DNA of 64,000 nt. Origin: Escherichia coli. GTDB taxonomy: Bacteria > Pseudomonadota > Gammaproteobacteria > Enterobacterales > Enterobacteriaceae. The stretch lies in the NCBI RefSeq assembly GCF_003018235.1, contig NZ_CP027437.1. The stretch is one strand, 5' to 3'. Each line of letters opens with the position of its first letter. Positions within the stretch are counted from its first letter, which is position 1. Positions 1 through 39,400 of this stretch are shown here, one piece after another. The notes under the pieces were generated by a model. It saw nothing but the letters and a program-made list of their open reading frames with translations, made no database searches and was not told the DNA's origin. The position numbers and the translations under genes were made by a program.

Positions 1-158
1 ATTTGTTCTACAATACCATATGACGCCCGATATTACGCCATACATAGAATATGACTACCTTGACCGTCAGGGTGTTTACAACGGCAGAGATAATTTATCG
101 GAAAACAGTTATCGCATTGGTGTGTCATTTAAACTGTAGTAGACAGGAGACAGTCACA

Positions 159-1265
159 ATGAATAAAACAATAACGGCGCTTGCTATCATAATGGCTTCA
201 TTTGCCGCAAACGCGTCTGTATTACCGGAAACTCCTGTGCCATTTAAAAGTGGTACCGGAGCAATTGATAACGACACTGTCTACATTGGTTTAGGTAGCG
301 CAGGTACAGCATGGTACAAGCTGGATACACAGGCCAAAGATAAAAAATGGACAGCGTTAGCTGCATTCCCTGGTGGGCCGAGAGATCAAGCAACCTCTGC
401 ATTTATTGATGGTAATCTGTATGTGTTTGGCGGCATTGGCAAAAACAGCGAGGGCTTGACTCAGGTATTTAATGACGTACACAAATACAACCCCAAAACC
501 AATAGCTGGGTTAAATTGATGTCGCACGCGCCGATGGGCATGGCGGGCCATGTGACTTTTGTACACAACGGCAAGGCTTATGTTACTGGCGGTGTTAACC
601 AGAATATCTTCAATGGCTATTTTGAAGATCTCAACGAGGCTGGAAAAGATTCAACCGCTATAGATAAAATCAACGCCCACTATTTTGACAAAAAAGCAGA
701 AGATTATTTCTTCAATAAGTTTCTGTTGTCTTTTGATCCCTCAACACAGCAATGGAGTTACGCTGGCGAATCTCCCTGGTACGGAACGGCTGGTGCGGCG
801 GTTGTGAATAAAGGTGATAAAACCTGGCTTATTAATGGCGAAGCCAAACCAGGATTGCGAACGGATGCCGTATTTGAACTTGATTTCACCGGTAATAATT
901 TAAAATGGAATAAGCTTGCTCCCGTCTCATCACCAGATGGCGTCGCTGGCGGTTTTGCAGGCATGAGCAATGACTCACTGATATTTGCCGGAGGGGCCGG
1001 ATTCAAAGGGTCACGGGAAAATTACCAAAACGGTAAGAACTATGCGCATGAAGGCCTGAAAAAATCATATAGCACTGATATTCATCTTTGGCATAACGGG
1101 AAATGGGATAAATCTGGTGAATTATCGCAAGGTCGGGCCTACGGAGTATCATTGCCCTGGAATAATAGTTTATTAATTATTGGCGGTGAAACTGCAGGCG
1201 GCAAAGCGGTGACGGATTCAGTTTTAATTTCTGTGAAGGATAATAAAGTCACAGTACAAAACTAA
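159..1265 (+). CDS. nanM: N-acetylneuraminate epimerase (Kelch-repeat, YjhT/NanM)
   Basis: ORF translation from MNKTITALAIIMASFAANA (signal peptide) matches NanM along its length; SD aggaga about 9 nt upstream of ATG at 159; the ORF-track start at 51 is an upstream extension. Confidence 0.9.
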   Translation: MNKTITALAIIMASFAANASVLPETPVPFKSGTGAIDNDTVYIGLGSAGTAWYKLDTQAKDKKWTALAAFPGGPRDQATSAFIDGNLYVFGGIGKNSEGLTQVFNDVHKYNPKTNSWVKLMSHAPMGMAGHVTFVHNGKAYVTGGVNQNIFNGYFEDLNEAGKDSTAIDKINAHYFDKKAEDYFFNKFLLSFDPSTQQWSYAGESPWYGTAGAAVVNKGDKTWLINGEAKPGLRTDAVFELDFTGNNLKWNKLAPVSSPDGVAGGFAGMSNDSLIFAGGAGFKGSRENYQNGKNYAHEGLKKSYSTDIHLWHNGKWDKSGELSQGRAYGVSLPWNNSLLIIGGETAGGKAVTDSVLISVKDNKVTVQN

Positions 1266-1329
1266 CGCTTCAGGGTCCCAGTAAAGGGGCCCTGCTATCA
1301 ATTTGTCATTTGTATTACGCGAAAATTAT

Positions 1330-2310
1330 ATGAACGCAATAATATCGCCCGATTATTACTATGTTCTTACCGTTGCTGGTCAGTCTAATGCCATGGCGTA
1401 TGGCGAAGGACTGCCATTACCGGACAGGGAAGATGCGCCTCATCCCAGAATTAAACAATTAGCGAGATTTGCGCATACGCATCCCGGAGGCCCGTCATGT
1501 CACTTTAACGACATTATTCCACTGACTCACTGCCCACACGATGTTCAGGATATGCAGGGTTATCACCATCCTCTGGCAACGAATCATCAAACACAGTACG
1601 GCACCGTTGGCCAGGCACTGCATATTGCACGGAAATTACTGCCCTTTATTCCTGATAACGCAGGGGTTCTCATCGTTCCGTGTTGCCGTGGCGGATCGGC
1701 TTTTACCGCGGGCAGCGAAGGGAAATATTCAGAACGGCACGGAGCCAGCCATGATGCTTGTCGTTGGGGAACGGATACTCCGCTATACCAGGATTTAGTC
1801 AGCAGAACGCGAGCCGCACTGGCAAAAAATCCGCAGAACAAATTCCTCGGCGTATGCTGGATGCAAGGCGAATTTGACTTAATGACCAGTGACTACGCGT
1901 CACACCCTCAACACTTTAATCATATGGTTGAAGCCTTTCGTAGGGAGCTAAAACAATACCATTCTCAGCTTAATAATATTACTGACGCACCGTGGTTTTG
2001 CGGCGATACCACCTGGTACTGGAAAGAAAATTTCCCTCATGCGTATGAAGCTATTTATGGCAATTATCAAAATAATGTTTTAGCCAATATTATTTTCGTC
2101 GACTTCCAGCAACAAGGTGCAAGAGGACTGACGAACGCGCCTGATGAAGATCCAGACGATTTAAGCACGGGATATTACGGTTCAGCGTACCGGTCACCGG
2201 AGAACTGGACGACGGCACTGCGAAGCAGTCATTTCAGCGCGGCAGCCCGTCGGGGGATTATTTCTGACAGGTTTGTAGAAGCAATTTTGCAGTTTTGGCG
2301 CGAAAGGTGA
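1330..2310 (+). CDS. nanS: 9-O-acetyl-N-acetylneuraminate esterase
   Basis: Translation from MNAIISPDYYYVLTVAGQSNA matches NanS (YjhS); follows nanM in the same orientation as in the nanCMS operon. Confidence 0.88.
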   Translation: MNAIISPDYYYVLTVAGQSNAMAYGEGLPLPDREDAPHPRIKQLARFAHTHPGGPSCHFNDIIPLTHCPHDVQDMQGYHHPLATNHQTQYGTVGQALHIARKLLPFIPDNAGVLIVPCCRGGSAFTAGSEGKYSERHGASHDACRWGTDTPLYQDLVSRTRAALAKNPQNKFLGVCWMQGEFDLMTSDYASHPQHFNHMVEAFRRELKQYHSQLNNITDAPWFCGDTTWYWKENFPHAYEAIYGNYQNNVLANIIFVDFQQQGARGLTNAPDEDPDDLSTGYYGSAYRSPENWTTALRSSHFSAAARRGIISDRFVEAILQFWRER

Positions 2311-2317
2311 GCGTTCA

Positions 2318-2518
2318 TTAATTTGATTTATTTGCATCCATTAGCGCTTTTAACTGCTCCGGCGTAAACGGTGGTTTGCGTCGGTGCAACATCGCATGGC
2401 AATTAGGGCACACAGGAAGCAAATCATTAACTGGATCCAGCTGGTAATCCTCTTTAATGGCTGAAAGCGGCACCAGGTGATGCACATTAAGCAATTTCAG
2501 AACCGCATGCTCATACAT
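2318..2518 (-). pseudogene. Short HNH-endonuclease-like ORF (66 aa), probably a truncated remnant
   Basis: Translation carries HH..P....N....CPNCH..H spacing typical of HNH nuclease cores but is far shorter than standalone HNH enzymes. Confidence 0.35.
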
Positions 2519-2577
2519 ATTTCCCCCTAAGTTTGCTCACTGCCTTTAATTTATGTCACAGGCAATGTAATTCACCT

Positions 2578-2649
2578 GAAGCTCATCTTGAATCTGTCCT
2601 TCTACTTAGTCATTACCCTACTGGCACAACCGACCTCAAGATGAGCTTC
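2578..2649. repeat. 14-bp perfect inverted repeat (gaagctcatcttga / tcaagatgagcttc) with 44-bp spacer
   Basis: Read directly from sequence, arms at 2578-2591 and 2636-2649; lies just 3-prime of the minus-strand gene ending at 2656. Confidence 0.6.
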
Positions 2650-2655
2650 TTACTT

Positions 2656-3264
2656 TTAACGATGTATCAGAACAATCTTGCGCCGGGAGAATAGCGTTTC
2701 CGCAGACAGCTGGAATTTATATTCCGCGGCCTTCAGCTTTCGCGATTTAAGCATTTTCATCGTGATACCCCTTATTTTCCCTGACTCAACCTGTCTCTTG
2801 ATTTCGCCGGTGCTCAGCATGAGCTGCTTTTGCAAAATCGACAGCAGGCTGACCTGAAACGAACGGGAAATCCTGACGCTAACCTTGACCCATTTGCCGG
2901 GAGAAAGGCTGGCTAACCACTGCTCCTGAATGCGAAAATCAGGCCGACCCGATAGCTCTGCGTTGTTCCGCTTCAGCATCGCGATATCACAGGAAAAATG
3001 TTGAACCGTGGCTGCATCGTTGCTCATCAGCCGGTTATGAAGTTCGCGGTCAATTTTGCTGACGTGCAGGCGCGAAAATAGGGAGATATTCCAGGTGTAA
3101 TCACAGTGTGTGCATTTATAGATACTCCACACGTCCAGCACCTTCTTTTGCGAATTAATCCGAAATGCACCTGATGGCGTGAAGTCCCGTTTAATGTTGC
3201 ATGAAGGGCATCGCTTCGCAATGCGCTGATACCCCACGGGCGTGACGGTCCATGTAACTTTCAT
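2656..3264 (-). CDS. Hypothetical protein with N-terminal CxxC...CxxC zinc ribbon and basic C-terminal region (202 aa)
   Basis: Long ORF with two CxxC pairs (CPSC, CTHC) and a K/R-rich C-terminus; no confident family assignment. Confidence 0.5.
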   Translation of the reverse strand: MKVTWTVTPVGYQRIAKRCPSCNIKRDFTPSGAFRINSQKKVLDVWSIYKCTHCDYTWNISLFSRLHVSKIDRELHNRLMSNDAATVQHFSCDIAMLKRNNAELSGRPDFRIQEQWLASLSPGKWVKVSVRISRSFQVSLLSILQKQLMLSTGEIKRQVESGKIRGITMKMLKSRKLKAAEYKFQLSAETLFSRRKIVLIHR

Positions 3265-3559
3265 AACCTACCTTTTTTAACCCATACAAAACCGGATCCG
3301 TACTGAACGGACCATGGATGTTTATGTATGAAAAATATTTAAGAGATATTTTTCAGAGGGTTAAAAAAAGATTTCCAACTATGCAATCCTGTCGGTGAGC
3401 AAAGAGATATAGCGAGACTATCAAAACGGCAATTATTGGGTATATGAGTTCAATCAATATTCATGATGGTTATGGCTTGTTCTATTGATCTGACACATTA
3501 AACACGGCGCATTAATTTTGTATGTTTTATGAACAACCCAACAACAAAAGGAGCGCGAT

Positions 3560-3811
3560 ATGACACAGCACGAACGGTTTTGTCAGGCCTGCGGAATGCC
3601 GATGTCCGCACCTGATGCGCAGGGGAGTAGCGATAAATACTGTGCATACTGCAGCGATAGCAACGGCAATCTTAAACCCTGGGAAGAGGCGGTATCAGGC
3701 TTGGCCAGCTTCCTTGATTCCTGGCAAAAAGTCGGTCCAGAAGAAGCACAGAAGCGTGCAAAACGTTATCTGACGGCAATGCCTGCCTGGGCTCATAAAG
3801 CGGACGAGTGA
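3560..3811 (+). CDS. Small zinc-ribbon domain protein (83 aa)
   Basis: CQAC...CAYC motif; strong SD aaaggag 8 nt upstream of ATG. Confidence 0.5.
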   Translation: MTQHERFCQACGMPMSAPDAQGSSDKYCAYCSDSNGNLKPWEEAVSGLASFLDSWQKVGPEEAQKRAKRYLTAMPAWAHKADE

Positions 3812-3875
3812 ATAACAAAGTCAGGGTGATTTAGGCAGTCTATCTTCACTCCGCTGATTCCATTAAGGAGAGCCG

Positions 3876-4268
3876 ATGTTTTCTCACATTATGCTTGGAA
3901 CCAACAACCTGCCACGCGCCATTGCATTCTACGATCCGTTGATGGATATGCTGGGGTATCCCCGCGGCGGCAGGAAGAGGAGATCGCATGGTGGGGCGTT
4001 TTCAACGGTAATAACACTACGGCACTGGGTATCAGTAGGCCATTTGATAAACAGGTTGCCACGACCCGAAATGGAGTGATGGTCGCCCTGATTGCGCGTT
4101 CTGCCGAACACATCCAGCAAGTTTCATGTGCTAGCTTTAAATCACGGTGGCACTGACGAGGGAGCACCTGGCCAGCGTCCGCATTACGGCGAAGGGTTCT
4201 ACAGCGCTTACGTCAGAGACACCGATGGCAACAAGCTGGCTTACGTTTATTACACCGCACAATCCTGA
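3876..4268 (+). pseudogene. VOC/glyoxalase-family gene disrupted by frameshifts
   Basis: N-terminus MFSHIMLGTNNLPRAIAFYDPLMDMLGY in frame 1 (SD aaggaga upstream); the rest of a VOC-like protein (ALGISRPFDKQVATTRNGVMVAL... and GGTDEGAPGQRPHYGEGFYSAYVRDTDGNKLAYVYY) continues in the other two frames, implying at least two frameshifts. Confidence 0.5.
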
Positions 4269-4512
4269 GAACGATAAAGCGGGGGCCTCAGCGCCCCCAC
4301 CTGAAACTAAACCGATCCCGCAGATGTCAATGAGCGTTGAACGAGTTGATAAATGCCGAGATGTCTGACTGTTTTTACGCCAGAACTCCATGGTGTGACA
4401 ACCATACACATACTCCCTTCTTGACACCTTTAAACCATTTAACCGCATGCCTCTGTCTGCCCTGCAGGGACGGCTGATGCCTGTGTGTTGTCTGGCGGTA
4501 AGGAACAATACT

Positions 4513-4674
4513 ATGTACGCAAAATCCTTTATCGCTCTCGACGGGAATGGTCGTCTGACCGGTGCCCGTACTGCGCAGACCGCCCCTTACGATCGTTATA
4601 CCTGCCACCTCTGCGGTAGCGTGCTGCAATACCATCCTGAATACATCACCGAACGCCCGTGCTTTGAACAGTAA
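4513..4674 (+). CDS. Small hypothetical ORF (53 aa, MYAKSFIALDGNGRL...)
   Basis: ATG preceded by aagga-like SD; contains CHLCGS motif; function unknown, could be a remnant. Confidence 0.25.
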   Translation: MYAKSFIALDGNGRLTGARTAQTAPYDRYTCHLCGSVLQYHPEYITERPCFEQ

Positions 4675-5266
4675 CCAACACACTGACAGAGGGCGGCGAA
4701 AATGCTTTATGCAAATCTTGATGCAAAGGCAGCCAGACGAATTCGTAAGTTACGCTTTTACGTGGCAGATACTCAAAGCAGACTGGCATTGTAGCGACGA
4801 TTGCCACGGTGAACGCTATTGTATGGCATGTAGTACCTGAGACTTCAGCCGCCCAGTAGATATAGCATCATGAAAAAACTGAAATGCTTTCTTGCCAACA
4901 ACTCACTGAGCTAGTATGCCTCCACCGATGTAACAATTAGAGCAAGCGTCAAAGTGCGAAACTGCCCTCACGTAGCTGCAAGTTAACACCAGGAAATCCT
5001 GGTTCAAACACGACCAGCTCTATGTTAGCGGCAAGCAATCGTTGAACTAAACGCATATGCAGCCGGAGATGAAAGTTAGGAAAAAAGCAGAGGCTGATAA
5101 GAATTATGCACGTTGAGCTGGGATCGTAATACCCCACTTAAAATGTACAAGGGGAGTAGTCTAATGATGTTAAATACGAACCTTCAGTATTGTTCATTCA
5201 CCAATTTTCCCATATTCTCTCATCATTAATATTCTCTGCCGAATTTTATAGGGCTAACTCGCTGAA

Positions 5267-5470
5267 ATGAATGACAAAGCTTTAACCTTGAAAGATGTGG
5301 TGGCTTACTTAAAGTTGGCAGAAAAAACAGCGTATAGGTTGACTAGCGAAGGCAAATTGCCGGGATTTAAGGTTGAAGGCTCATGACGCTTCAAACGAGA
5401 GGATTTAGATATGTGGATTGAAGGTCAGAAGACTCAAAGCTACCCGAGTATCACAAAATCCAATCGTGGT
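5267..5470 (+). pseudogene. Excisionase/AlpA-like HTH DNA-binding protein interrupted by in-frame TGA
   Basis: Translation MNDKALTLKDVVAYLKLAEKTAYRLTSEGKLPGFKVEGS*RFKREDLDMWIEGQ; the stop at 5384-5386 sits where this family has the conserved Trp of the GSWRF motif. Confidence 0.5.
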
Positions 5471-5666
5471 TGATCAAGTGGATAAACATGAAAAGTCGGT
5501 AGCCCTCAAAGGCCACTTGCCACATGCAGTGAAGCAAGCCGTTGTGCAAGCTCTACTGAAAGAAGGTGATATCGCCCGAACGTTGCTCAAGGATCCACAA
5601 GTTATGGCAAGTTATGTTGAGCTGATTTTCGACATGATGAAGCAGAATAAAAATATGAATATCTAA
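5418..5666 (+). CDS. Small hypothetical ORF immediately upstream of the ATPase gene (non-ATG start in ORF track)
   Basis: ORF-track call only; start is TTG/GTG with no convincing SD; overlaps the 3-prime end of the HTH pseudogene. Confidence 0.2.
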   Translation: MKVRRLKATRVSQNPIVVDQVDKHEKSVALKGHLPHAVKQAVVQALLKEGDIARTLLKDPQVMASYVELIFDMMKQNKNMNI

Positions 5667-5708
5667 AAGATTTTGGGCTATCTATTACGTTTTAAAATGA
5701 GATAAATA

Positions 5709-8246
5709 ATGATAAATGACCATGAAGAACTAGAACTTGCTAAAGCTCAGGCAAAAGAAATATGGAAGATCCTTGATTATGTTCGAGGAGCATCACCTAT
5801 ATCTAATTATCGCTCATTAGCGTATTCAATCTTCTTCGTACGCTATCTTCAATCCAATACAGGTCAGCATTTTGAGGCAGAAAGGTTCGACTCTTTTAAT
5901 GTCATCGCCCAGTATTCCTACGATCTTGTAAACTATGCCGTTCAACTTGGATTGATTCATAGCGACGTATCTAAATTCTTAATTTATTATTTAGAAAACA
6001 CACTCCGTTCATTTGTCAATATTGATGAGTCTTTTGTTCGTTATGCAATTAGAGATGGTCTACTCAATAAAACCCCTGCAATAGCGTCGCTTTCTTTATC
6101 AGAACTGGATTTACTTTTTGCCGAGAATGAAGGTAAGTCAGGAGGTGAGTTTTATACCCCTAGAGACGTCAACTTATTGGTTAAAATATTAGGATTGAGT
6201 TATCAACCAAAGTCAATATGTGACCCATTTGCAGGTGCTGGAAACACAGCATTTCCTTTTGCCAATACTGGTATTGAAAAAGTTAGGATTGATACTCAAG
6301 AAATTAATAGAGATGCTTACTTTAAACTAGTAATAAGTAGAGTCATCAGGAAAATAGAAGGTCGAGACTATTTCGGCGATTCCCTATCACAACCATTATA
6401 TCAAGAAAATAAATATGATCTGATAGTTTCTTTCCCACCTTTTGGCATGAAAATTCCTAAAGCCACTCGAAATAATATTTACTATAAAACAAGTAATAAG
6501 TGGCTGGATATTACTGAAATCTTGCCAGAAAGTAGAAGTGATTGGTTTATAACATTATCAATGCTTCCAGCCCTTTCTGAGGGGGGTAAGATACTAGTAG
6601 GTATGTCACTTGGGGCTTTGACAAGAGCAGGCTCTGAGGCAAAGGTTCGTGAGTATTTAGTCTCTCGCGGAATTATCGAACAAGTAATTCTTTTACCTAA
6701 AAATATTTATTACTCTACGGCTATCTCAACTGTACTTCTTGTCCTCAACTCAGGAACAAGTAACATAAATAACAGAAGTATTAAATTTGTAGATGCTTCA
6801 CTGTTTTACGAGCCTGCCCGTGGTCGAAACACCCTCACAACAAAAAATATAAATGAGATCGTAGAGGCTTGTCATAAAGATGGCCGATTTAGTATTAGTT
6901 CATCTCATACCCAAATAGCAAACAGAGACTTTAATTTAGATCCGTCTCTTTATGTACGTAAAGATCTCAAAATCAGTGAGGTTTCTTTAAAAAATTTTAG
7001 AGGATACTCTGACTTTAAAGTTTCGATACATCCTTCTTTAAATGTATTGGTTGGTGAGAACGGCGTCGGGAAAACTTCGATATTAGAAGCATTAGCATGT
7101 GGCCTTGGTCCTTTCCTTACTGCTATGCCTGATGCTAAAGGAAAACTGATAAAAAAATCAGATATCCATATAAGTTCAAAAGGAATCGCAAATTATGCTC
7201 GAATATCGATTGAAACAACATCAAGTTTAAGTTGGGATCTTGTGGCAAAGGGGGTTGATGTTTCCGAGCCCCCTAAGATAGGAACATCAGCATTAACTAG
7301 CTACGCTACTCATCTTGTAGATAGTCAGTCTGAATATCCACTCATTGCTTATTATGGGACTAACCGTGCTCTTACTTCTACCAGTTCTAAAGTTGCAATA
7401 AATCCATTCGAGAAAGAAAATCGTGGGGAAGGTTATGACTTTGCTTTAGATGCTAAAGTTAACTACGGCATCTTAAAGAACTGGTTTTCAAAAATAGAGG
7501 TTGATGAGCTTCGAAAACGTGATGAACTAAAAGACCATAAATTCATTCATCCGGCTAAGAGACTTGTTTCAGAGGCTGTTTACCAGATTGTTGATCGAGC
7601 TACATGCTTGGAGTTCGACAAAAATAGTAACGATGTTATGGTTCATTGGAAAAATGAGCAGGGAGAGTGCGTAAAGCTTACATTGGAACAACTAAGTGAA
7701 GGGTATAGAAATATGGTATCCCTGACCATTGACCTAGTGAGGCGTGCTTATTTACTTAATCCTACCAAACCGAAACCGCTAACAGTTAATGGGATCGTTT
7801 TAATTGATGAAATTGAACTTCACTTGCACCCTAGATGGCAGCAAAAGATTTTAAATGATCTTACTAAGCTGTTTAAGAATATTCAGTTTATTGTCACGAC
7901 ACATAGTCCTCAAGTCTTAACAACAATCAAAGCCGATTGTATCCGTATTGTTTCCGTCAATGCTAACGAAGCAAAATTAGTGACAGGAACTACTACTTAC
8001 GGTTCTGAAAGCTCAAGAATGTTGGAAGATGTTTTAGGTGGTAACAATCGCGCCCAACATCTTGATATTGTTAAAAAACTAAACCGTTATACAGAGTTAG
8101 TAGAGGCCGACAAATGGGATACCGATGAGGCATTAGAACTCAAAAAAGAGTTATATAAATGGGGTGGTCAGACAGAAGACGAGCTTCAAAAATTAGAAAC
8201 TGATATTCGAATTCGCGAGTTCGAGCGTGGCAATGAAAAAGATTAA
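5709..8246 (+). CDS. Fusion protein: N-terminal gamma-class N6-adenine methyltransferase-like domain plus C-terminal ABC-type ATPase (Septu PtuA-like)
   Basis: MTase-like motifs in order X-I-IV: EFYTPRDV (about aa 147), DPFAGAGN (about aa 172), SFPPFG (about aa 240). ATPase motifs: Walker A GENGVGKTS (about aa 449), Walker B VLIDEIELHLHP (about aa 695), TTHSP (about aa 730). AT-rich coding sequence. Confidence 0.75.
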   Translation: MINDHEELELAKAQAKEIWKILDYVRGASPISNYRSLAYSIFFVRYLQSNTGQHFEAERFDSFNVIAQYSYDLVNYAVQLGLIHSDVSKFLIYYLENTLRSFVNIDESFVRYAIRDGLLNKTPAIASLSLSELDLLFAENEGKSGGEFYTPRDVNLLVKILGLSYQPKSICDPFAGAGNTAFPFANTGIEKVRIDTQEINRDAYFKLVISRVIRKIEGRDYFGDSLSQPLYQENKYDLIVSFPPFGMKIPKATRNNIYYKTSNKWLDITEILPESRSDWFITLSMLPALSEGGKILVGMSLGALTRAGSEAKVREYLVSRGIIEQVILLPKNIYYSTAISTVLLVLNSGTSNINNRSIKFVDASLFYEPARGRNTLTTKNINEIVEACHKDGRFSISSSHTQIANRDFNLDPSLYVRKDLKISEVSLKNFRGYSDFKVSIHPSLNVLVGENGVGKTSILEALACGLGPFLTAMPDAKGKLIKKSDIHISSKGIANYARISIETTSSLSWDLVAKGVDVSEPPKIGTSALTSYATHLVDSQSEYPLIAYYGTNRALTSTSSKVAINPFEKENRGEGYDFALDAKVNYGILKNWFSKIEVDELRKRDELKDHKFIHPAKRLVSEAVYQIVDRATCLEFDKNSNDVMVHWKNEQGECVKLTLEQLSEGYRNMVSLTIDLVRRAYLLNPTKPKPLTVNGIVLIDEIELHLHPRWQQKILNDLTKLFKNIQFIVTTHSPQVLTTIKADCIRIVSVNANEAKLVTGTTTYGSESSRMLEDVLGGNNRAQHLDIVKKLNRYTELVEADKWDTDEALELKKELYKWGGQTEDELQKLETDIRIREFERGNEKD

Positions 8247-9021
8247 TAAGCTAGATGAGCCAAATCGGCTTGGTGTGTTCAAGGCTACTCATCCTAATGC
8301 TTTGTGGGAGAGGGATAAAAACTCAATTGAAGAGGCTTTCCGTTGTTGCATTGCCAGATATCAAGAAACTCTACAACAATTACGTACGGACCAAGGTAAT
8401 TTATGTGCATATTGTGAACAGGATTTAATGTCTGGAACTAATGGGGCATTAGATGACTGCCGTATTGAGCATTTTCATCCGAAATCTAAACGTGAACAGG
8501 GAGAACCTAATTGGGCTTTGGAATGGAGCAATTTGTTAGTTGTTTGCTGTGGCGGAAATCAAAGTAAAGTTGTTAATCCTGGGCAAAGATTTGATGCTGA
8601 TCCCAAAAATTACTCTTGCGATGTACCAAAGAGTGACAAAATTTTAGATACCATTATATTAAATCCACTTAATTTACCTGAATTAAATATCTGGAAGTTT
8701 CATCGTTCTTCGGGGCAAATTTCCGTAAATGAAGATTCCTGTTTAGAATTTGGTATAAGTGTTGAAATGGCACACCAAACAATTAAAGAATTGAATTTAA
8801 ATTCCCCTCGATTAATTAGATTTCGAAAGGCTATTCTAAATAATCTCAACATTTTAATAACAGAAAGGCTGAAGAAGGGACAAACGGTAGAGCAAGCTGT
8901 TAGATTTATTGCCATATCACTCTTTAGAAAAAATGGAGCAGGTGATTGGCCCTCTTTTTTTAGTGCAACACGATATTATTTAGGTCAGCAGGCTGAGCTT
9001 GTTTTAGCCCAACCTATTTAA
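8227..9021 (+). CDS. HNH nuclease (Septu PtuB-like)
   Basis: Motif CAYCEQD...DDCRIEHFHPKS...WSNLLVVCCGGN; start (GTG 8227 or ATG 8233) overlaps the stop of the upstream ATPase gene, indicating an operon. Confidence 0.7.
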   Translation: MAMKKINKLDEPNRLGVFKATHPNALWERDKNSIEEAFRCCIARYQETLQQLRTDQGNLCAYCEQDLMSGTNGALDDCRIEHFHPKSKREQGEPNWALEWSNLLVVCCGGNQSKVVNPGQRFDADPKNYSCDVPKSDKILDTIILNPLNLPELNIWKFHRSSGQISVNEDSCLEFGISVEMAHQTIKELNLNSPRLIRFRKAILNNLNILITERLKKGQTVEQAVRFIAISLFRKNGAGDWPSFFSATRYYLGQQAELVLAQPI

Positions 9022-9040
9022 CATACTTTCAACTAGTTAG

Positions 9041-9063
9041 AGAGGCTGCTTTTGGCAGCCTCT
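9041..9063. terminator. Hairpin between convergent operons (agaggctgcttttggcagcctct)
   Basis: Perfect stem agaggctgc/gcagcctct with T-rich loop, located between the stop at 9021 (+) and the stop at 9082 (-). Confidence 0.4.
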
Positions 9064-9081
9064 TGCAGAGTGCAGAATCGA

Positions 9082-10515
9082 CTACAGGGGCGATGCTAGC
9101 TCAGAGAACCAAGCGTGAACTGATCTGTAAAATGTGCTGATTGACCAAAACTCACTGCATGCAGCAACTAACAGAATGACCACTAAGAGGATCACTACAG
9201 TAGAAGTCATTCTTTCCACACGGCAGTATGATCCCATCGCATCTTTTACAGGTTGTCTAGCCAGTTCCTGATAATCCAGCTCATCCAGAAATCCGTATAA
9301 TTTAGTTCTCCAGGTGGTTCTAACTCTTTCAAGTAATGAAATTGTTTGCCTATTAATATAGACAGACATTCCATAGGAAATAACTATATAAACCGCGATA
9401 GCACAAAAAACCAAAGCGTAAATATTTTGCAAACCAACTGATTTTACTGCATCCAGACTGTAGCGAATAACCAAGACACTAATTACAAGAGCCATATCTT
9501 TCCATAAGGAAGAGGACAAATCTCGGGATTGCTGAATGATCTTTTGTGTATCTTCAGCCAGCGTTTTCCGCAAATCACCCAAGGATTTCATAGTATCTTT
9601 ACCACCAGTCCTGATATGGGCCTTATACATTAACCGTGCAGACTCCAAAGCTGATGAGAGTCGAAGCATCACTCCCTCACAAAAGTTCAGGTCTGAAGGC
9701 CACTCTCTAGCCAGCTCGCTGGACAAAAACGTATGTTTCAGCTCAGTTTCATTCCCCTCTAGAAAAATCCACTTTGCCGCTTCCTGGATAATATCAAAAG
9801 CAGGTAACGCTGCCGTCTCATCGCCGAATGCTATTTTTCTGGGAGGCTTTCCCGCAAGCCCCACCATCATTTCGTCAGCAAAAAAAAGTTCATTTGCAAA
9901 ACATTTCAGCAACTCTCGGCATCCTAGCAATTTCCATATCTTGATTGCTTCATCAGTCTTCTCACTACAAGTTTCAAGTATCCAAGGGGCAATGGCATCT
10001 GGAGGAAGAAAAGTTGTTGAATAACATTTGATGATACTTTTTGTTACTGAAGGCTTAGTGATAGCTGTTGCATCACCAGCACTCACCGGCTGTATCTCCT
10101 TCCATGGATGCACATACCAACTTATTGTCTGAAAGCCTTCAGTAATAAACAGCCCATAAATATGTTTGTACCGACAGAGTTTGCTATCTTGAAGTAAAAA
10201 AGTGCGCCATCCTTCTAAGGTAAAAAGCCTCAGTATCCCCGGAATTTCATTATAAGTGATGGTAATGTAGTGCTTCTGCCCTGGGACCCCCTCTCTCGGA
10301 TGAATAACATCTCTGCTCTCATCGATAAAAACGATCTTGAGATCTTCCGCATGTACATCCACTATTTCTCCCCATAAATCAAGGGATTCACTATCCATTG
10401 TGGCGGAAATAAAAAGCTTATGGATAGACACCTGCTGGTCCTCTGTGATCACAAGGTCAGATAAATGTCGTGAGTGGCATATAGCCTTACCGATTTTTTC
10501 CAATATCGATATCAT
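9082..10515 (-). CDS. Hypothetical protein with C-terminal transmembrane helices (477 aa)
   Basis: Long ORF; C-terminal hydrophobic segments (IYALVFCAIAVYIVISYGMSVYI and STVVILLVVILLVAACSEFWSI); 29-nt overlap with the upstream gene; no recognisable catalytic motif. Confidence 0.55.
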   Translation of the reverse strand: MISILEKIGKAICHSRHLSDLVITEDQQVSIHKLFISATMDSESLDLWGEIVDVHAEDLKIVFIDESRDVIHPREGVPGQKHYITITYNEIPGILRLFTLEGWRTFLLQDSKLCRYKHIYGLFITEGFQTISWYVHPWKEIQPVSAGDATAITKPSVTKSIIKCYSTTFLPPDAIAPWILETCSEKTDEAIKIWKLLGCRELLKCFANELFFADEMMVGLAGKPPRKIAFGDETAALPAFDIIQEAAKWIFLEGNETELKHTFLSSELAREWPSDLNFCEGVMLRLSSALESARLMYKAHIRTGGKDTMKSLGDLRKTLAEDTQKIIQQSRDLSSSLWKDMALVISVLVIRYSLDAVKSVGLQNIYALVFCAIAVYIVISYGMSVYINRQTISLLERVRTTWRTKLYGFLDELDYQELARQPVKDAMGSYCRVERMTSTVVILLVVILLVAACSEFWSISTFYRSVHAWFSELASPL

Positions 10516-11548
10516 CTGTTACCAATCCTGCAGTCACAATTACAATTCGTTTTCGCCCGTCTTCCATATTTTCTACTTCTGGTGCATTGTCTTCATCGTA
10601 GATAATGATTACATCTTCCAATGTTTCCAGTTTTCTCTTCCGGGGCTTCTGAATGTTATCGGGAATGATGCGGAAAGATTCACCTGAAATTCCTAAATCC
10701 TTTATTTTACGAAAAAAATACTTAACCAGAGGGTGTTCTTCCTCCAAAGGACCAAAAATCTGGGTCAACAATGGCAGTGCTTCATCAGTATTAAAATCCT
10801 GTTCGCCATGGCGTAAAGTTTCATAAATTTTGTTTACTCCGCTGCGCTTGATCTCTTCAGGTAGTAAGTTTCGATGCTTTTTATATACATCTTTTAATAC
10901 AGTAACTAGCTTATCGCTGAGCTGAGTTGGGTCATTGACGCGCTTAACCTGTAGAAATCGTTCAAAATAGACAGAGATGTTAGTACGTTTGCTGCGATCT
11001 CGTACGACAACTAATCCGCCCGGCAAATCTTCATTCAGCCGTACCAGTGCGATTTTCTGCATGGCTTCGGCTTTTTTAACGAAACTTTCGCGAAAGCGTT
11101 CGAGTTTAGGTACCTGAAACTCATCTCCTTCAACATCCAGCACATAACGGACTACATCTTCATTGTCATACTTAATCAACGCATACAGTTTCTCATCGTT
11201 GAGTGTATGAAGTTCAAAAAGGAAAAAAACGCCCATACTGGCATTCTTGGTATGGTGGTGAGACTGAAAATCGCTTGCCAATAAGGAGGATTGCTCAGTA
11301 AAGCAGCCGATATCGGTGTCTGCATGTTCCCTGATGATCCTCAGGATTCGCTCTGTATTTGACAACTCCTTAAAATGAAACATATTGCCACTAACTGCAG
11401 ATTTGATACGTTCCAGAAAGAAATCAACATGCTCCGGAGGGGAAATTTCGCTGAGTAAAACAGGGACTTCCAACTCACCGCCAACCACATGAAAAATCAT
11501 CCTTTTTATTGATAATGCATTGATTTCTTCATCCGTTAAAAAACTCAT
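10487..11548 (-). CDS. Hypothetical protein (353 aa), weak resemblance to NdpA/YejK-type nucleoid-associated proteins
   Basis: Long ORF first in a two-gene operon; size and scattered sequence patterns recall YejK, but this is an unverified impression. Confidence 0.5.
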   Translation of the reverse strand: MSFLTDEEINALSIKRMIFHVVGGELEVPVLLSEISPPEHVDFFLERIKSAVSGNMFHFKELSNTERILRIIREHADTDIGCFTEQSSLLASDFQSHHHTKNASMGVFFLFELHTLNDEKLYALIKYDNEDVVRYVLDVEGDEFQVPKLERFRESFVKKAEAMQKIALVRLNEDLPGGLVVVRDRSKRTNISVYFERFLQVKRVNDPTQLSDKLVTVLKDVYKKHRNLLPEEIKRSGVNKIYETLRHGEQDFNTDEALPLLTQIFGPLEEEHPLVKYFFRKIKDLGISGESFRIIPDNIQKPRKRKLETLEDVIIIYDEDNAPEVENMEDGRKRIVIVTAGLVTDDIDIGKNR

Positions 11549-11744
11549 TTTTATTTCTCAATATAGTGTTTATATTTACTACCGTGAGCCATCTTACCTA
11601 AGCGTAGAACGTGGCGGAAAACACGATAACATTATTGCATAGCTTACGGCGTAACTTATCCTCGCCCCAGACAGAATAAACGTCAAAATAAAATAATGAA
11701 AATATGATCGAGACAGCATTAGCTGCCCCGCTTTCTTAGACTTT

Positions 11745-12998
11745 TTACATTATTAGGGCAAAATCAAACGGACTCACCCCCTTCTCCCGATTCGCATCCA
11801 GATAATTTGCCCACCACTGCAGCATCAACCTACGCTCCCCAAGATGTTCCGCCTTATGGATGTATGCCGCCCGCACAGAGCTACGCTCCTGATGGCTCAT
11901 CTGCCGCTCCACTGCATTCCTCGACCACAATCCTGATTCAATAAGTGAACTACAGGCCATCGTCCTGAAACCATGCCCACAGACTTCCGTTTTGGTGTCA
12001 TAGCCCATAACTCGCAAAGCCTTGTTCACCGTATTCTCACTCATCGGCTTATGCGGATCGTGATCGCCCACAAAAATCAGCTCTCGATTTCCATTCATGC
12101 TTTTGATCTTTTCCAAAATAGCTAAGGCCTGCCGCGATAAGGGTACAAGATGGGGAGTTCGCATCTTCGAACCACGCTGAGAATGTTTAACACCGTCCAA
12201 CGGTTCACGCTCACCGGGGATCGTCCACATGGCCGTTTCAAAATCCACTTCTGACCAACGGGCAAAGCGCAGTTCGCTTGAACGGATGAAAACTAACAAA
12301 GTGAGTTCGACAGCCAGTCGAGTTAACGGCCTGCCGGAGTAATGATCAATGCGGTGAAGTAATTCAGGTATGCGGTTAAGCTCCAGAGCCGCACGATGCT
12401 GTCTTTTAGCAGTAGCAACCGCACCGGTAATCTCTTGCGCGGGGTTGTAGTCGATTAAGCCGCTCTGAACGGCAAAGCGCATAATCGCGGTAGTTCGCTG
12501 CTGTAAACGGGCGGCGACTTCAAGACGTCCGGATGACTCCACCGCTTTAATGGGTACAAGAAGATCCCGAGTCTTAAGCTCTGCAATGTTCCGCTTACCG
12601 ATAGCAGCAAAGAGATTATCTTCTAGGCTTTTCAATACACGAGCACTATGCGATGCAGACCACTTCTGATTACTGGCATGCCAGTCTCTGACGACCACTT
12701 CAAACGTTATCGCCTCTTGCTCCTGTTCTACCTTAACCGCTTTCTTGTTTTCACTGGGATCGACGCCGTTCGCTAAAAGCTTACGCGCTTCGTCTCGCCG
12801 CGATCGAGCATCAGCTAACGAAACTTCAGGATACTTCCCTAGCGCCAGCATCTTCTCTTTACCACCGAAACGATAACGAAGCCGCCAGTATTTGGAGCCG
12901 TTAGGGTGAACCAGCAAAACCATGCCTTCACCATCAGTAAGTTTATAGGCTTTTGCTTCAGGCTTTGCCGAACGAACCTTCACATCACTCAGAGCCAT
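11745..12998 (-). CDS. P4-type tyrosine integrase (IntB-like), apparently intact
   Basis: Translation MALSDVKVRSAKPEAKAYKLTDGEGMVLLVHPNGSKYWRLRYRFGGKEK... matches P4/CP4-like integrases and ends with a tyrosine-recombinase C-terminus; adjacent to tRNA-Leu 3-prime end. Confidence 0.85.
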   Translation of the reverse strand: MALSDVKVRSAKPEAKAYKLTDGEGMVLLVHPNGSKYWRLRYRFGGKEKMLALGKYPEVSLADARSRRDEARKLLANGVDPSENKKAVKVEQEQEAITFEVVVRDWHASNQKWSASHSARVLKSLEDNLFAAIGKRNIAELKTRDLLVPIKAVESSGRLEVAARLQQRTTAIMRFAVQSGLIDYNPAQEITGAVATAKRQHRAALELNRIPELLHRIDHYSGRPLTRLAVELTLLVFIRSSELRFARWSEVDFETAMWTIPGEREPLDGVKHSQRGSKMRTPHLVPLSRQALAILEKIKSMNGNRELIFVGDHDPHKPMSENTVNKALRVMGYDTKTEVCGHGFRTMACSSLIESGLWSRNAVERQMSHQERSSVRAAYIHKAEHLGERRLMLQWWANYLDANREKGVSPFDFALIM

Positions 12999-13196
12999 GA
13001 TGAATATCCTTTCAAGGGTTCTGTGTGGGTACAAACATTATCGAACCGGGATATACCCGCAGTTGTACCCGCATCAGTAAGTTGATGTAGATTGAATCAG
13101 GTTGACTTAGGTTGAGTGAAAAAGCGAGGAAAGCCTTGCGGATACTGGATTTCAGGCATAAAAAAAGACCTCAGTTGAGGTCTATTTACATACTTA

Positions 13197-13281
13197 TGGT
13201 GCCGAAGGCCGGACTCGAACCGGCACGTATTTCTACGGTTGATTTTGAATCAACTGCGTCTACCGATTTCGCCACTTCGGC
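13197..13281 (-). tRNA. leuX: tRNA-Leu (CAA)
   Basis: Reverse complement reads GCCGAAGTGGCGAAATCGGTAGACGCAGTTGATTCAAAATCAACCGTAGAAATACGTGCCGGTTCGAGTCCGGCCTTCGGCACCA, with cloverleaf features and a long variable arm. Confidence 0.9.
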
Positions 13282-13476
13282 ACTGAAGAGGTATGCGGAA
13301 AACGTTGTGGATTATACCTGTCGCACGCCACCATGCAAGCGCCAGCTTGCTCGCACCTCGCTAAGTGCTGAAATTTTCAGCATTGCATACAGTGATGTGT
13401 AACCTTTGTCACACTCCAGGCACCCCGCCCTGCCATGCTCTACACTTCCCAGACAACACCAGAGAAGGACCAAAAA

Positions 13477-14496
13477 ATGTCGATGATAAAAAGCTATGCT
13501 GCAAAAGAAGCGGGCGGCGAACTGGAAGTTTATGAGTACGATCCCGGTGAACTGAAGCCACAAGATGTTGAAGTGCAGGTGGATTACTGCGGGATCTGTC
13601 ATTCCGATCTGTCAATGATCGATAACGAATGGGGATTTTCACAATATCCACTGGTTGCCGGGCATGAGGTGATTGGTCGCGTAGTGGCGCTCGGGAGTGC
13701 CGCGCAGGATAAAGGTTTGCAGGTCGGTCAGCGTGTCGGGATTGGCTGGACGGCACGCAGCTGCGGGCATTGCGATGCCTGTATTAGCGGTAATCAGATC
13801 AACTGCGAGCAAGGTGCGGTGCCGACGATTATGAATCGCGGTGGCTTTGCCGAGAAGTTGCGTGCGGACTGGCAATGGGTGATTCCACTGCCAGAAAATA
13901 TCGACATTGAATCTGCCGGACCGCTGTTGTGCGGCGGTATCACGGTCTTTAAACCGCTGTTGATGCACCATATCACTGCCACCAGCCGCGTTGGGGTAAT
14001 TGGTATTGGCGGGCTGGGGCATATAGCTATAAAACTTCTGCACGCAATGGGATGCGAGGTGACAGCCTTTAGTTCTAATCCGGCGAAAGAGCAGGAAGTG
14101 CTGGCGATGGGTGCCGATAAAGTGGTGAATAGCCGCGATCCACAGGCACTGAAAGCACTGGCGGGGCAGTTTGATCTCATTATCAACACCGTCAACGTCA
14201 GCCTCGACTGGCAGCCTTATTTTGAGGCGCTGACGTATGGCGGTAATTTCCACACCGTCGGTGCGGTTCTCACGCCGTTGCCGGTTCCGGCCTTTACGCT
14301 GATTGCGGGCGATCGCAGTGTCTCTGGCTCTGCTACCGGCACGCCCTATGAGTTGCGTAAGCTGATGCGCTTTGCCGCCCGCAGCAAGGTTGCGCCGACC
14401 ACCGAACTGTTCCCGATGTCGAAAATTAACGACGCCATCCAGCATGTGCGCGACGGTAAGGCGTGTTACCGCGTGGTTCTGAAAGCCGACTTCTGA
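13477..14496 (+). CDS. ahr: NADPH-dependent aldehyde reductase (YjgB)
   Basis: Translation from [22 protein letters not shown]... with zinc-ADH motif GHEVIGRV. Confidence 0.9.
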
Positions 14497-14625
14497 TCCC
14501 TTTGCCGGGTGCCTGTCGCCCGGCGTTTAAATCTCTTTGGAAGGCGTCTCGCAATCTGCTGAATTTAGCGGTGAAGAGTGCGCAGCCGTTGCCTATACTC
14601 CAGGCAGGAAACTGGAGGATATCTC

Positions 14626-16128
14626 ATGAGCGAACCCCTGTTAATTGCCCGCACGTCGGACACAGAACTGTTTTTATTGCCGGGAATGGCGAATCGTCAC
14701 GGGCTGATTACTGGCGCAACGGGGACGGGTAAAACCGTTACGCTGCAAAAGCTGGCGGAGTCATTGTCGGAAATCGGTGTTCCGGTGTTTATGGCCGATG
14801 TGAAAGGTGATTTAACGGGAGTTGCGGAGGAAGGTACATCTTCGGAAAAACTGCTCGCAAGGCTTAAAAATATCGGCGTAAATGACTGGCAACCTCATGC
14901 TAATCCGGTGGTGGTGTGGGATATCTTTGGCGAGAAAGGCCACCCAGTGCGGGCGACGGTTTCGGATTTGGGGCCTCTGTTGCTGGCGCGACTGTTGAAT
15001 CTCAACGATGTGCAATCTGGCGTGCTGAATATTATCTTCCGCATTGCGGACGATCAGGGATTGTTGCTGCTCGACTTTAAAGATTTGCGGGCGATTACCC
15101 AGTACATCGGCGATAACGCCAAATCCTTCCAGAATCAGTACGGTAATATCAGTAGCGCATCGGTTGGTGCCATCCAGCGCGGGCTGTTATCGCTGGAACA
15201 GCAAGGCGCGGCGCACTTTTTTGGTGAGCCGATGCTGGATATCAAAGACTGGATGCGTACCGATGCCAACGGTAAAGGCGTTATCAATATCCTCAGCGCC
15301 GAGAAGCTTTATCAGATGCCGAAACTGTACGCCGCCAGCCTGCTGTGGATGCTTTCAGAGTTATATGAACAATTGCCTGAAGCGGGCGATCTGGAGAAAC
15401 CAAAACTGGTGTTTTTCTTCGACGAAGCACATCTGCTGTTTAACGATGCGCCACAGGTACTGCTGGATAAGATTGAGCAGGTGATAAGGCTTATTCGCTC
15501 AAAAGGCGTGGGCGTCTGGTTCGTTTCGCAAAACCCGTCAGATATTCCGGATAATGTGCTCGGACAGCTAGGTAATCGCGTTCAACACGCTTTGCGGGCT
15601 TTTACGCCCAAAGATCAGAAAGCAGTAAAAGCTGCGGCGCAAACCATGCGGGCCAATCCGGCGTTTGATACCGAAAAGGCAATCCAGGAACTGGGGATCG
15701 GCGAGGCGTTAATCTCGTTTCTCGATGCGAAAGGAAGCCCTTCAGTGGTGGAACGGGCGATGGTGATTGCCCCCTGTTCACGAATGGGGCCGGTGACGGA
15801 AGATGAGCGTAATGGCTTGATTAATCACTCCCCGGTGTATGGCAAGTACGAGGATGACGTGGACCGGGAATCCGCCTATGAGATGTTGCAAAAAGGCTTT
15901 CAGGCCAGTACCGAGCAGCAAAATAATCCTCCCGCGAAAGGGAAAGAGGTGGCGGTGGATGACGGTATTCTTGGTGGATTGAAGGATATTTTGTTTGGCA
16001 CTACCGGACCACGCGGCGGGAAGAAAGATGGTGTGGTGCAAACAATGGCGAAAAGCGCCGCCCGCCAGGTGACGAATCAGATTGTGCGTGGGATGTTGGG
16101 GAGTTTGCTGGGGGGGAGAAAAAGGTAA
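14626..16128 (+). CDS. yjgR: DUF853-family P-loop NTPase YjgR
   Basis: Translation from [12 protein letters not shown]... with Walker A GATGTGKT. Confidence 0.88.
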
Positions 16129-16288
16129 GTCAGGTGCGATTTGTCTTTGCCTGATGCGACGCTGGCGCGCTTTATCATGCCTAAACTACTGCAATATATT
16201 GAATTTTCATGATTTTTCAGGCATGAACGAAGCACACTTTGCTAACAATAATAAAGGGAGCTTTCGCTCCCTTTATTCGTTCATCAGG

Positions 16289-17371
16289 TTACGATTTTCT
16301 CATTAACAGCCACAGGCTGATTAAGAAGAAGCTGGCGCTTGGCAACAGTGCGCCGATGATCGGCGGGATGCCATAAACCAACGTCAGCGGGCCGAAGATC
16401 TGGTCCAGTACGTAGAAGACAAAACCGAAGCTAATACCAGTGACCACACGCACGCCCATCGGTACGCTACGCAGTGGGCCAAAGATGAACGACAGCGCCA
16501 TCAGCATCATCACCGCCACGGATAGCGGCTGGAAGATTTTGCTCCACATGTTGAGCTGATAACGTCCGGCATCCTGACCGCTCGACTTCAGATACTTCAC
16601 ATAGTTGTGCAAACCGCTGATAGAGAGTGCATCCGGGTCCAGCGCCACCACGCCCAGTTTGTCTGGCGTGAGGTTGGTTTTCCAGGTGCCGCTCACCGTC
16701 TGCGAACCGGTGATCTGTTTCGGATTGGTCAAATCAGATTCATCAACCTGCGACAGACGCCAGACTTTATGTTCCGGGTCAAACTTCGCGGTAGCGGCAT
16801 AGCGTACGGATTGCAGACGACGATTCTCGTTAAAGGCATAAATACTGATGCCACCTAACTCTTCGTCACCTTTAACCCGCTCAATGTAGACGAAGTTGTT
16901 GCCATCTTTCGCCCATAAACCTTGCTGGGTAGAGAGCAACGAGCCGCCGTACATCGCCTGCGCACGGTAGTTACGCGCCATCTGCTCGCCCTGCGGCGCG
17001 ACCCATTCACCAATCGCCATCGTCAGCAAGACCAGCGGAATGGCGGTTTTCATCACCGACAGCGCAACCTGCATACGGGTAAAACCAGAAGCCTGCATCA
17101 CCACCAGTTCGCTGCGCTGCGCCAGCATCCCAAGACCAAGCAACGCCCCAAGCAGAGCCGCCATCGGGAAGAAGATTTGCACATCTTTCGGCACGCTCAG
17201 CAAGGTATACATTCCTGCGCCTAACGCGTCGTAACTCCCCTGCCCGGCTTTTTTCAGCTGATCGACAAATTTGATAATGCCCGACAGCGACACCAGCATG
17301 AACAGCGTCATCATGATGGTGGTGAAAATAGTTTTACCGATATAGCGGTCAAGTACGCCAAAAGGTTGCAT
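16289..17371 (-). CDS. lptG: LPS export ABC permease LptG
   Basis: Translation MQPFGVLDRYIGKTIF...; overlaps lptF stop. Confidence 0.92.
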   Translation of the reverse strand: MQPFGVLDRYIGKTIFTTIMMTLFMLVSLSGIIKFVDQLKKAGQGSYDALGAGMYTLLSVPKDVQIFFPMAALLGALLGLGMLAQRSELVVMQASGFTRMQVALSVMKTAIPLVLLTMAIGEWVAPQGEQMARNYRAQAMYGGSLLSTQQGLWAKDGNNFVYIERVKGDEELGGISIYAFNENRRLQSVRYAATAKFDPEHKVWRLSQVDESDLTNPKQITGSQTVSGTWKTNLTPDKLGVVALDPDALSISGLHNYVKYLKSSGQDAGRYQLNMWSKIFQPLSVAVMMLMALSFIFGPLRSVPMGVRVVTGISFGFVFYVLDQIFGPLTLVYGIPPIIGALLPSASFFLISLWLLMRKS

Positions 17372-38452: not shown

Positions 38453-39400
38453 ATGCAAAATCGGCTGACCATCAAAGACATCGCGCGCTTAAGCGGCGTG
38501 GGGAAATCTACGGTTTCCCGGGTGCTGAATAACGAAAGCGGCGTGAGCCAGCGCACGCGCGAGCGTGTTGAAGCAGTGATGAATCAGCATGGATTTTCCC
38601 CTTCCCGCTCTGCGCGCGCTATGCGTGGGCAAAGCGATAAAGTGGTCGCCATCATTGTTACCCGTCTGGATTCGTTGTCAGAAAATCTCGCCGTTCAAAC
38701 CATGCTGCCAGCGTTCTATGAACAAGGTTACGATCCAATCATGATGGAAAGTCAGTTTTCCCCGCAATTAGTTGCCGAACATTTGGGGGTGCTGAAACGG
38801 CGTAATATCGACGGCGTAGTGCTGTTCGGTTTTACCGGCATAACAGAAGAAATGTTAGCCCACTGGCAGTCATCGCTGGTTCTGCTGGCGCGTGACGCAA
38901 AAGGCTTTGCTTCGGTCTGTTATGACGACGAAGGGGCAATCAAGATCCTGATGCAACGGCTGTATGACCAGGGACATCGTAATATCAGTTATCTCGGCGT
39001 GCCGCACAGTGACGTGACGACCGGTAAGCGACGTCACGAAGCCTACCTGGCGTTCTGCAAAGCGCATAAACTGCATCCCGTTGCCGCCCTGCCAGGCCTT
39101 GCTATGAAGCAAGGCTATGAGAACGTAGCAAAAGTGATTACGCCTGAAACTACCGCCTTACTGTGCGCAACCGACACGCTGGCACTTGGTGCAAGTAAAT
39201 ACCTGCAAGAGCAACGCATCGACACCTTGCAACTGGCGAGCGTCGGTAATACGCCGTTAATGAAATTCCTCCATCCGGAGATCGTCACCGTAGATCCTGG
39301 TTACGCCGAAGCTGGACGCCAGGCGGCCTGCCAGTTGATCGCGCAGGTAACCGGGCGCAGCGAACCGCAACAAATCATCATCCCCGCCACCCTGTCCTGA
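38453..39400 (+). CDS. treR: Trehalose operon repressor (LacI family)
   Basis: N-terminal HTH LTIKDIARLSGVGKSTVSRVLNN. Confidence 0.92.
   Translation: MQNRLTIKDIARLSGVGKSTVSRVLNNESGVSQRTRERVEAVMNQHGFSPSRSARAMRGQSDKVVAIIVTRLDSLSENLAVQTMLPAFYEQGYDPIMMESQFSPQLVAEHLGVLKRRNIDGVVLFGFTGITEEMLAHWQSSLVLLARDAKGFASVCYDDEGAIKILMQRLYDQGHRNISYLGVPHSDVTTGKRRHEAYLAFCKAHKLHPVAALPGLAMKQGYENVAKVITPETTALLCATDTLALGASKYLQEQRIDTLQLASVGNTPLMKFLHPEIVTVDPGYAEAGRQAACQLIAQVTGRSEPQQIIIPATLS

Follow-up and report, generated by a model that had tools for sequence, protein, structure and literature searches.

In Escherichia coli K-12, the genes of the GntII, or L-idonate, system (idnK and idnDOTR) form a locus for which a passage of PMC3251573 cites Bausch et al. 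(1998, J Bacteriol 180:3704). That the locus can be present or absent is already known, idnK and idnDOTR being listed as accessory in pangenome studies. The accessory set idnODRKT occurs in 83% of genomes with pks and in about 31% of those without it, and is missing from one ST95 clade (PMC8545132), while idnK is missing from ST131 JJ1886 and S250 and present in SE15 (PMC5369007). L-idonate degradation genes are enriched among HUS-associated STEC (PMC4216125), and the idn pathway has been discussed as a possible advantage in gut colonisation (PMC8545132, PMC4216125). In the MG1655 record the order is yjgR-idnR-idnT-idnO-idnD-idnK-ahr-leuX-intB, as the preliminary description of the DNA studied here had stated; five idn genes thus lie between ahr and yjgR in K-12. 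We analysed the corresponding site in a 64,000-nt stretch of E. coli DNA (NZ_CP027437.1), referred to as the window. Very probably, in our reading, the ahr-yjgR intergenic slot is the site of an old presence/absence polymorphism, and the window has its empty allele.

ahr and yjgR are direct neighbours in the window

The junction and its surroundings comprise the following features:

11745-13034: tyrosine integrase, near leuX
13197..13281, minus strand: tRNA-Leu(CAA) gene leuX (ARAGORN; Rfam tRNA, 59.4 bits)
13477..14496, plus strand: ahr (yjgB), NADPH-dependent aldehyde reductase, intact, 339 aa, stop codon TGA at 14494-14496
14497..14586, plus strand: 90 bp found only in the empty (idn-less) allele, delimited by blastn breakpoints and alignments
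14503..14525, plus strand: hairpin (9-pair stem, 5-nt loop) with a T-rich tail behind it (strand folding)
14587..14625, plus strand: yjgR leader common to both alleles, CGTTGCCTATACTCCAGGCAGGAAACTGGAGGATATCTC, with a TATACT -10-like hexamer and a GGAGGA ribosome-binding site
14626..16128, plus strand: yjgR, DUF853/HerA-like P-loop ATPase, intact 500-aa ORF with an ATG start

The gap between the two genes, put at about 130 bp in the preliminary description, measures 129 bp (14497-14625) in the sequence and the ORF list. Both genes that flank the empty junction are intact. The ahr product scores 552 bits against the NCBIfam equivalog NF047908 (cut-off 470), and tblastn aligned it from position 13477 with K-12 Ahr over 339/339 residues at 99.1% amino acid identity. 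The ahr ORF is also open in the 5' direction to an ATG at 13435 (353 aa, with 13435-13476 as the extra part), which is probably not the true start, with both the NCBIfam profile and K-12 Ahr aligning from 13477 only. YjgR is 98.8% identical in amino acids to its K-12 counterpart across residues 1-487 (tblastn), and yjgR is annotated in all E. coli matches to the junction region. The adjacency of ahr and yjgR is a statement of gene order, so that chance is not at issue.

Compared with the K-12 locus, the window has the same flanks in the same orientation and the same neighbourhood, leuX-ahr ... yjgR-lptG-lptF-pepA-holC-valS, with leuX upstream of ahr and lptG, lptF and pepA downstream of yjgR; the 39-bp yjgR leader is present as well. 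It differs in lacking all five idn genes and in having a 90-bp spacer with a hairpin that is absent from K-12. Alignment with K-12 thus bore out the proposed absence of the idn cluster between ahr and yjgR. A tblastn search of the whole 64-kb window with the five K-12 Idn proteins returned only distant paralogues, at 21-33% identity. IdnD and IdnO reached only 33% and 27% identity, to paralogues (ahr itself and an SDR gene at 30372-31064); IdnR matched another LacI-family gene (38456-39349) at only 21% identity, and IdnT and IdnK had no match in the window.

In the window, leuX marks the edge of an integrase-bearing island. Here this is a compact element (~2500-13034) between nanC/nanM remnants and leuX, and its K-12 counterpart position is occupied by a cryptic prophage (PR-Y) region. 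At least 80% of the length of positions 1-13100 is present in only 2/5426 complete E. coli genomes, the best being CFSAN018748 (99.4%). The island encodes a Septu-like defence pair (5709-9021, plus strand). In its 845-aa protein, an N6 DNA methylase domain (residues 137-418, Pfam PF02384) is joined to a PtuA ATPase (residues 420-843; PADLOC PDLC00278, E 5e-106), and an overlapping gene for a 264-aa PtuB HNH nuclease comes next (PDLC00349, E 2e-100). The methylase-PtuA fusion may be a non-standard Septu arrangement. Other island genes include one for an NA37 nucleoid-associated-like protein (10487-11548, minus strand) and a 477-aa ORF (9082-10515, minus strand) with no Pfam, NCBIfam or PADLOC match.

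Breakpoints relative to K-12 and elements of the spacer

The first blastn breakpoint is at window position 14496, where the ahr stop codon ends, and corresponds to position 15191 of the K-12 stretch (L001); the second is at window position 14587 and corresponds to L001 10103. Between them lie 5087 bp in K-12 and 90 bp in the window. The GC content of the K-12 insert is 47.3%, against 52-55% in the flanks. The last 13 nt of the insert (TCTCTTTGCCGGA) and the first 13 nt of the spacer (TCCCTTTGCCGGG) agree at 11/13 positions, a match that is only suggestive and could be due to chance. In the arrangement that we propose, ahr in the empty allele would be followed by a terminator hairpin of its own (14503-14525), and a conserved upstream stretch of about 60 bp would link this hairpin to the shared yjgR leader. 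In the K-12-type allele a 5.1-kb segment of lower GC takes the place of the 90 bp of spacer, encoding the GntII/L-idonate pathway as idnK plus, on the opposite strand, idnDOTR. Because the last 13 nt of the insert resemble the first 13 nt of the spacer, the segment may have been inserted directly after the ahr stop codon, with loss of the remaining 77 nt.

The hairpin at 14503-14525 is predicted to be the intrinsic terminator of ahr, a likely assignment that draws on the 9-bp stem present 3' of the stop codon. The U tract that follows the stem is interrupted (GTTTAAATCTCTTT), and a pattern scan for terminators gave one site in the spacer where 0.6 are expected by chance. Citrobacter werkmanii has a different hairpin at the matching position. 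On the yjgR side, the 14587-14625 leader matches K-12 exactly and Citrobacter and Enterobacter almost exactly, and we infer for it a putative promoter role. A TATACT -10 element was recognised by eye, and a sigma-70 consensus scan found no plus-strand site in the spacer. Upstream of the -10 element, the idn and empty alleles differ in sequence. Since neither allele has a convincing -35 element, we make no claim on differential expression or regulation of yjgR.

Three further candidates were considered and rejected for the junction. An idn remnant in the spacer was sought by comparing the 90 bp with both strands of the insert, and the best score of 12 compares with a mean of 11.5 and a maximum of 15 for shuffled sequence. 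Flanking repeats that would point to a mobile element or a site-specific event amounted to short ones at chance level. For a structured RNA in the spacer, an Rfam search at E<=1 over 13000-16500 returned only leuX and, downstream of yjgR, a sub-threshold match to ES036. The latter, an ES036 (CssrF) sRNA match at 16177-16216 on the minus strand, scores 29.9 bits (E 0.004), below the gathering score of 37.6. Close by, between the convergent yjgR and lptG genes, a perfect 12-nt inverted repeat (16250-16277) is probably a terminator shared by both.

The empty junction is the majority state in E. coli

A 321-bp junction probe found full-length matches in 3211/5426 complete E. coli genomes (~59%), at identities of up to 99.1%, while the K-12 idn interval was present at a coverage of at least 80% in 2039/5426. 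The empty junction is thus the majority state and the K-12 type the minority, which substantiates the earlier suggestion of a lineage-variable trait. O157:H7, O111 and O103:H2 genomes and AMSHJX01 are among those with the empty junction, and they share the architecture and spacer of the window. E. albertii NBRC 107761 also has an empty junction of the same architecture, with a spacer ~95% identical to that of the window. Relative to the empty junctions of other E. coli and of E. albertii, the window shows point differences only. These observations bear directly on the notion that the adjacency is an artefact of assembly, such as a collapsed or mis-joined contig. We found no point in its favour, and the same junction recurs in 3211 complete, independently assembled E. 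coli genomes as well as in E. albertii and C. werkmanii; an artefact can practically be dismissed.

The same collection bears on whether the idn cluster might reside elsewhere in this genome, at a chromosomal or plasmid site outside the window. Such a relocation could go unseen in a window that covers ~1.3% of the genome, and plasmids account for two of the 5042 idn matches in the collection. These 5042 places are spread over 5026 genomes; no genome has more than 2 of them, and the median is 1. The genomes that match the K-12 interval below the coverage threshold do so only with its last 39 bp, the yjgR leader. In LR-64-2, for instance, the leader match (2338981-2339019) lies inside the strain's own empty junction (2338794-2339114). 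The match of idn-less genomes to 39 bp of the K-12 interval alone argues that the cluster has not simply moved, and the empty and idn counts together account for 5250/5426 genomes. Across the collection, the idn cluster is either at the ahr-yjgR site or absent and has essentially not relocated, which makes another location in the present strain very improbable.

Rarer configurations of the locus were also seen. In E. coli 20KM2228 (L083 8746-9079), a third allele has a deletion of the left part of the spacer and the bulk of ahr; what survives of ahr is a 236-bp pseudogene fragment beside yjgR. In CFSAN018748, the closest relative, ahr is annotated as frameshifted. On NZ_CP172870.1, a 120-kb plasmid of E. 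coli strain 35, a 399-bp segment (83522-83920) corresponds at 93.5% identity to the 3' part of ahr. The segment, whose annotation reads zinc-binding dehydrogenase, is a piece of chromosomal ahr mobilised onto a plasmid.

Outgroup loci suggest the polarity and age of the alleles

Species-representative genomes were scanned for YjgR relatives. Eight enterobacterial loci were among the matches listed, most of which belong to Betaproteobacteria, and these eight were typed by tblastn for the content between ahr and yjgR:

E. albertii: nothing between, 132-bp gap
Citrobacter werkmanii: nothing between, 139-bp gap
Citrobacter sp. FP75: idnK-idnD-idnO-idnT-idnR
Enterobacter cloacae, Enterobacter sp. 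Ag1 and Leclercia: ~1.9 kb
Two Yersinia loci: no ahr found within the locus

E. albertii shares the 90-bp allele-specific spacer at ~95% identity, C. werkmanii retains most of it, and the yjgR-proximal part of the spacer is still partly present in Enterobacter and Leclercia. The K-12-type allele is without 77-90 nt of this conserved sequence, so the empty allele is not derivable from it by simple deletion. From the eight outgroup loci among the matches listed we infer that K-12 has the derived state at this locus and the window the outgroup-type state, a polarity that rests mainly on the absence of 77 nt from the idn allele and on the low GC content of the insert.

In Citrobacter sp. FP75 the idn cluster has both breakpoints identical to those in K-12. 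Between K-12 and FP75 the idn genes are 77-83% identical in nucleotides, and the flanking genes ahr, yjgR and lptG 82-85%. As the idn genes are as diverged as their flanks, the idn allele would be about as old as the empty one, which counts against the proposed polarity and also speaks against a recent transfer between the genera. The eight outgroup loci among the matches listed thus lend modest support to the view that both alleles either predate the divergence of Escherichia and Citrobacter or were exchanged across it.

Like the window, Enterobacter cloacae, Enterobacter sp. Ag1 and Leclercia have ahr and yjgR as co-oriented neighbours with variable content between them. The slot is empty in the window, whereas that of E. 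cloacae holds, within ~1.9 kb, a single gene for a 548-aa Dak1/Dak2 dihydroxyacetone kinase-type protein. This gene (L005 8217-9863) runs in the opposite orientation, and gaps of similar size (~1.9 kb) are found in Enterobacter sp. Ag1 and Leclercia (L006, L007). The slot therefore holds different cargo in different genera.

Divergence around the junction and the question of secondary loss

Nucleotide identity to K-12 varies from gene to gene:

ahr: 95.6%
yjgR: 94.3%
lptG: 98.6%
lptF: 99.3%
pepA (18738-20249): 95.8%

At 13477-16128 and 18738-20249, ahr, yjgR and pepA are thus 4-6% diverged from K-12 in nucleotides, with the Ahr and YjgR proteins at least 98.8% identical. The ahr-yjgR haplotype of the window is rare: its best 2.7-kb match reaches 98.0%, and most genomes are at 90-95%. 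Over 23 kb the best identity is ~97.4%. An origin of the window outside E. coli was rejected, because the 38-62 kb part is 99.0-99.1% identical to several E. coli genomes and the divergence lies mainly in ahr, yjgR and pepA. The region is a mosaic of deep haplotypes beside the leuX hotspot, and its high local divergence fits a recombining region that adjoins this hotspot.

This divergence is also what would be expected of recombined flanks, and it has to be weighed in favour of a different history, in which an ancestor carried the K-12-type idn allele and lost it secondarily, either by clean deletion or by allelic replacement, in which homologous recombination in ahr and yjgR introduced the empty allele of another E. 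coli. On this account the unusual divergence of ahr and yjgR beside lptG and lptF would mark the exchanged tract. The best match shifts along the window, from CFSAN018748 on the left to ST410-like strains on the right, and the occurrence of both alleles within E. coli, even within ST131 and ST95, implies frequent switching. Simple deletion is excluded, because 77-90 nt of the empty allele have no counterpart in the idn allele and are conserved in E. albertii and C. werkmanii. Allelic replacement is the form of secondary loss that then comes into question, and in the present data it looks the same as vertical inheritance of the empty allele. Taking both sides together, we consider a secondary loss in this lineage unlikely, if far from negligible, and prefer the window as a carrier of the old empty allele.

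Discussion

An E. coli junction without idn, correctly recognised in the preliminary description, is an ordinary finding that matters little beyond the description of the strain. The comparison adds only a mildly new angle, namely that the idn alleles of Escherichia and Citrobacter have identical breakpoints and a divergence that matches that of their flanks. On this basis the ahr-yjgR spacer could be a long-lived cargo slot with an idn+/idn- polymorphism common to both genera, whose two haplotypes would have persisted since before the genera split, maintained by balancing or niche-dependent selection or by exchange through recombination in the flanks; we put this forward tentatively, as a possibility to which we give somewhat less than even weight.

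If the window carries the empty allele and the rest of the genome has no idn genes either, the strain should have no catabolism of L-idonate or 5-ketogluconate by the GntII route through IdnD, IdnO and IdnT, and it would lack the thermosensitive gluconokinase IdnK. Gluconate use by the main GntI system would be unaffected. For annotators, the absence of idn is not to be read as a deletion, the K-12 arrangement being the minority and apparently derived state. The breakpoints shared by Escherichia and Citrobacter would make this locus a small, tidy case of an old presence/absence polymorphism beside the leuX integration hotspot.
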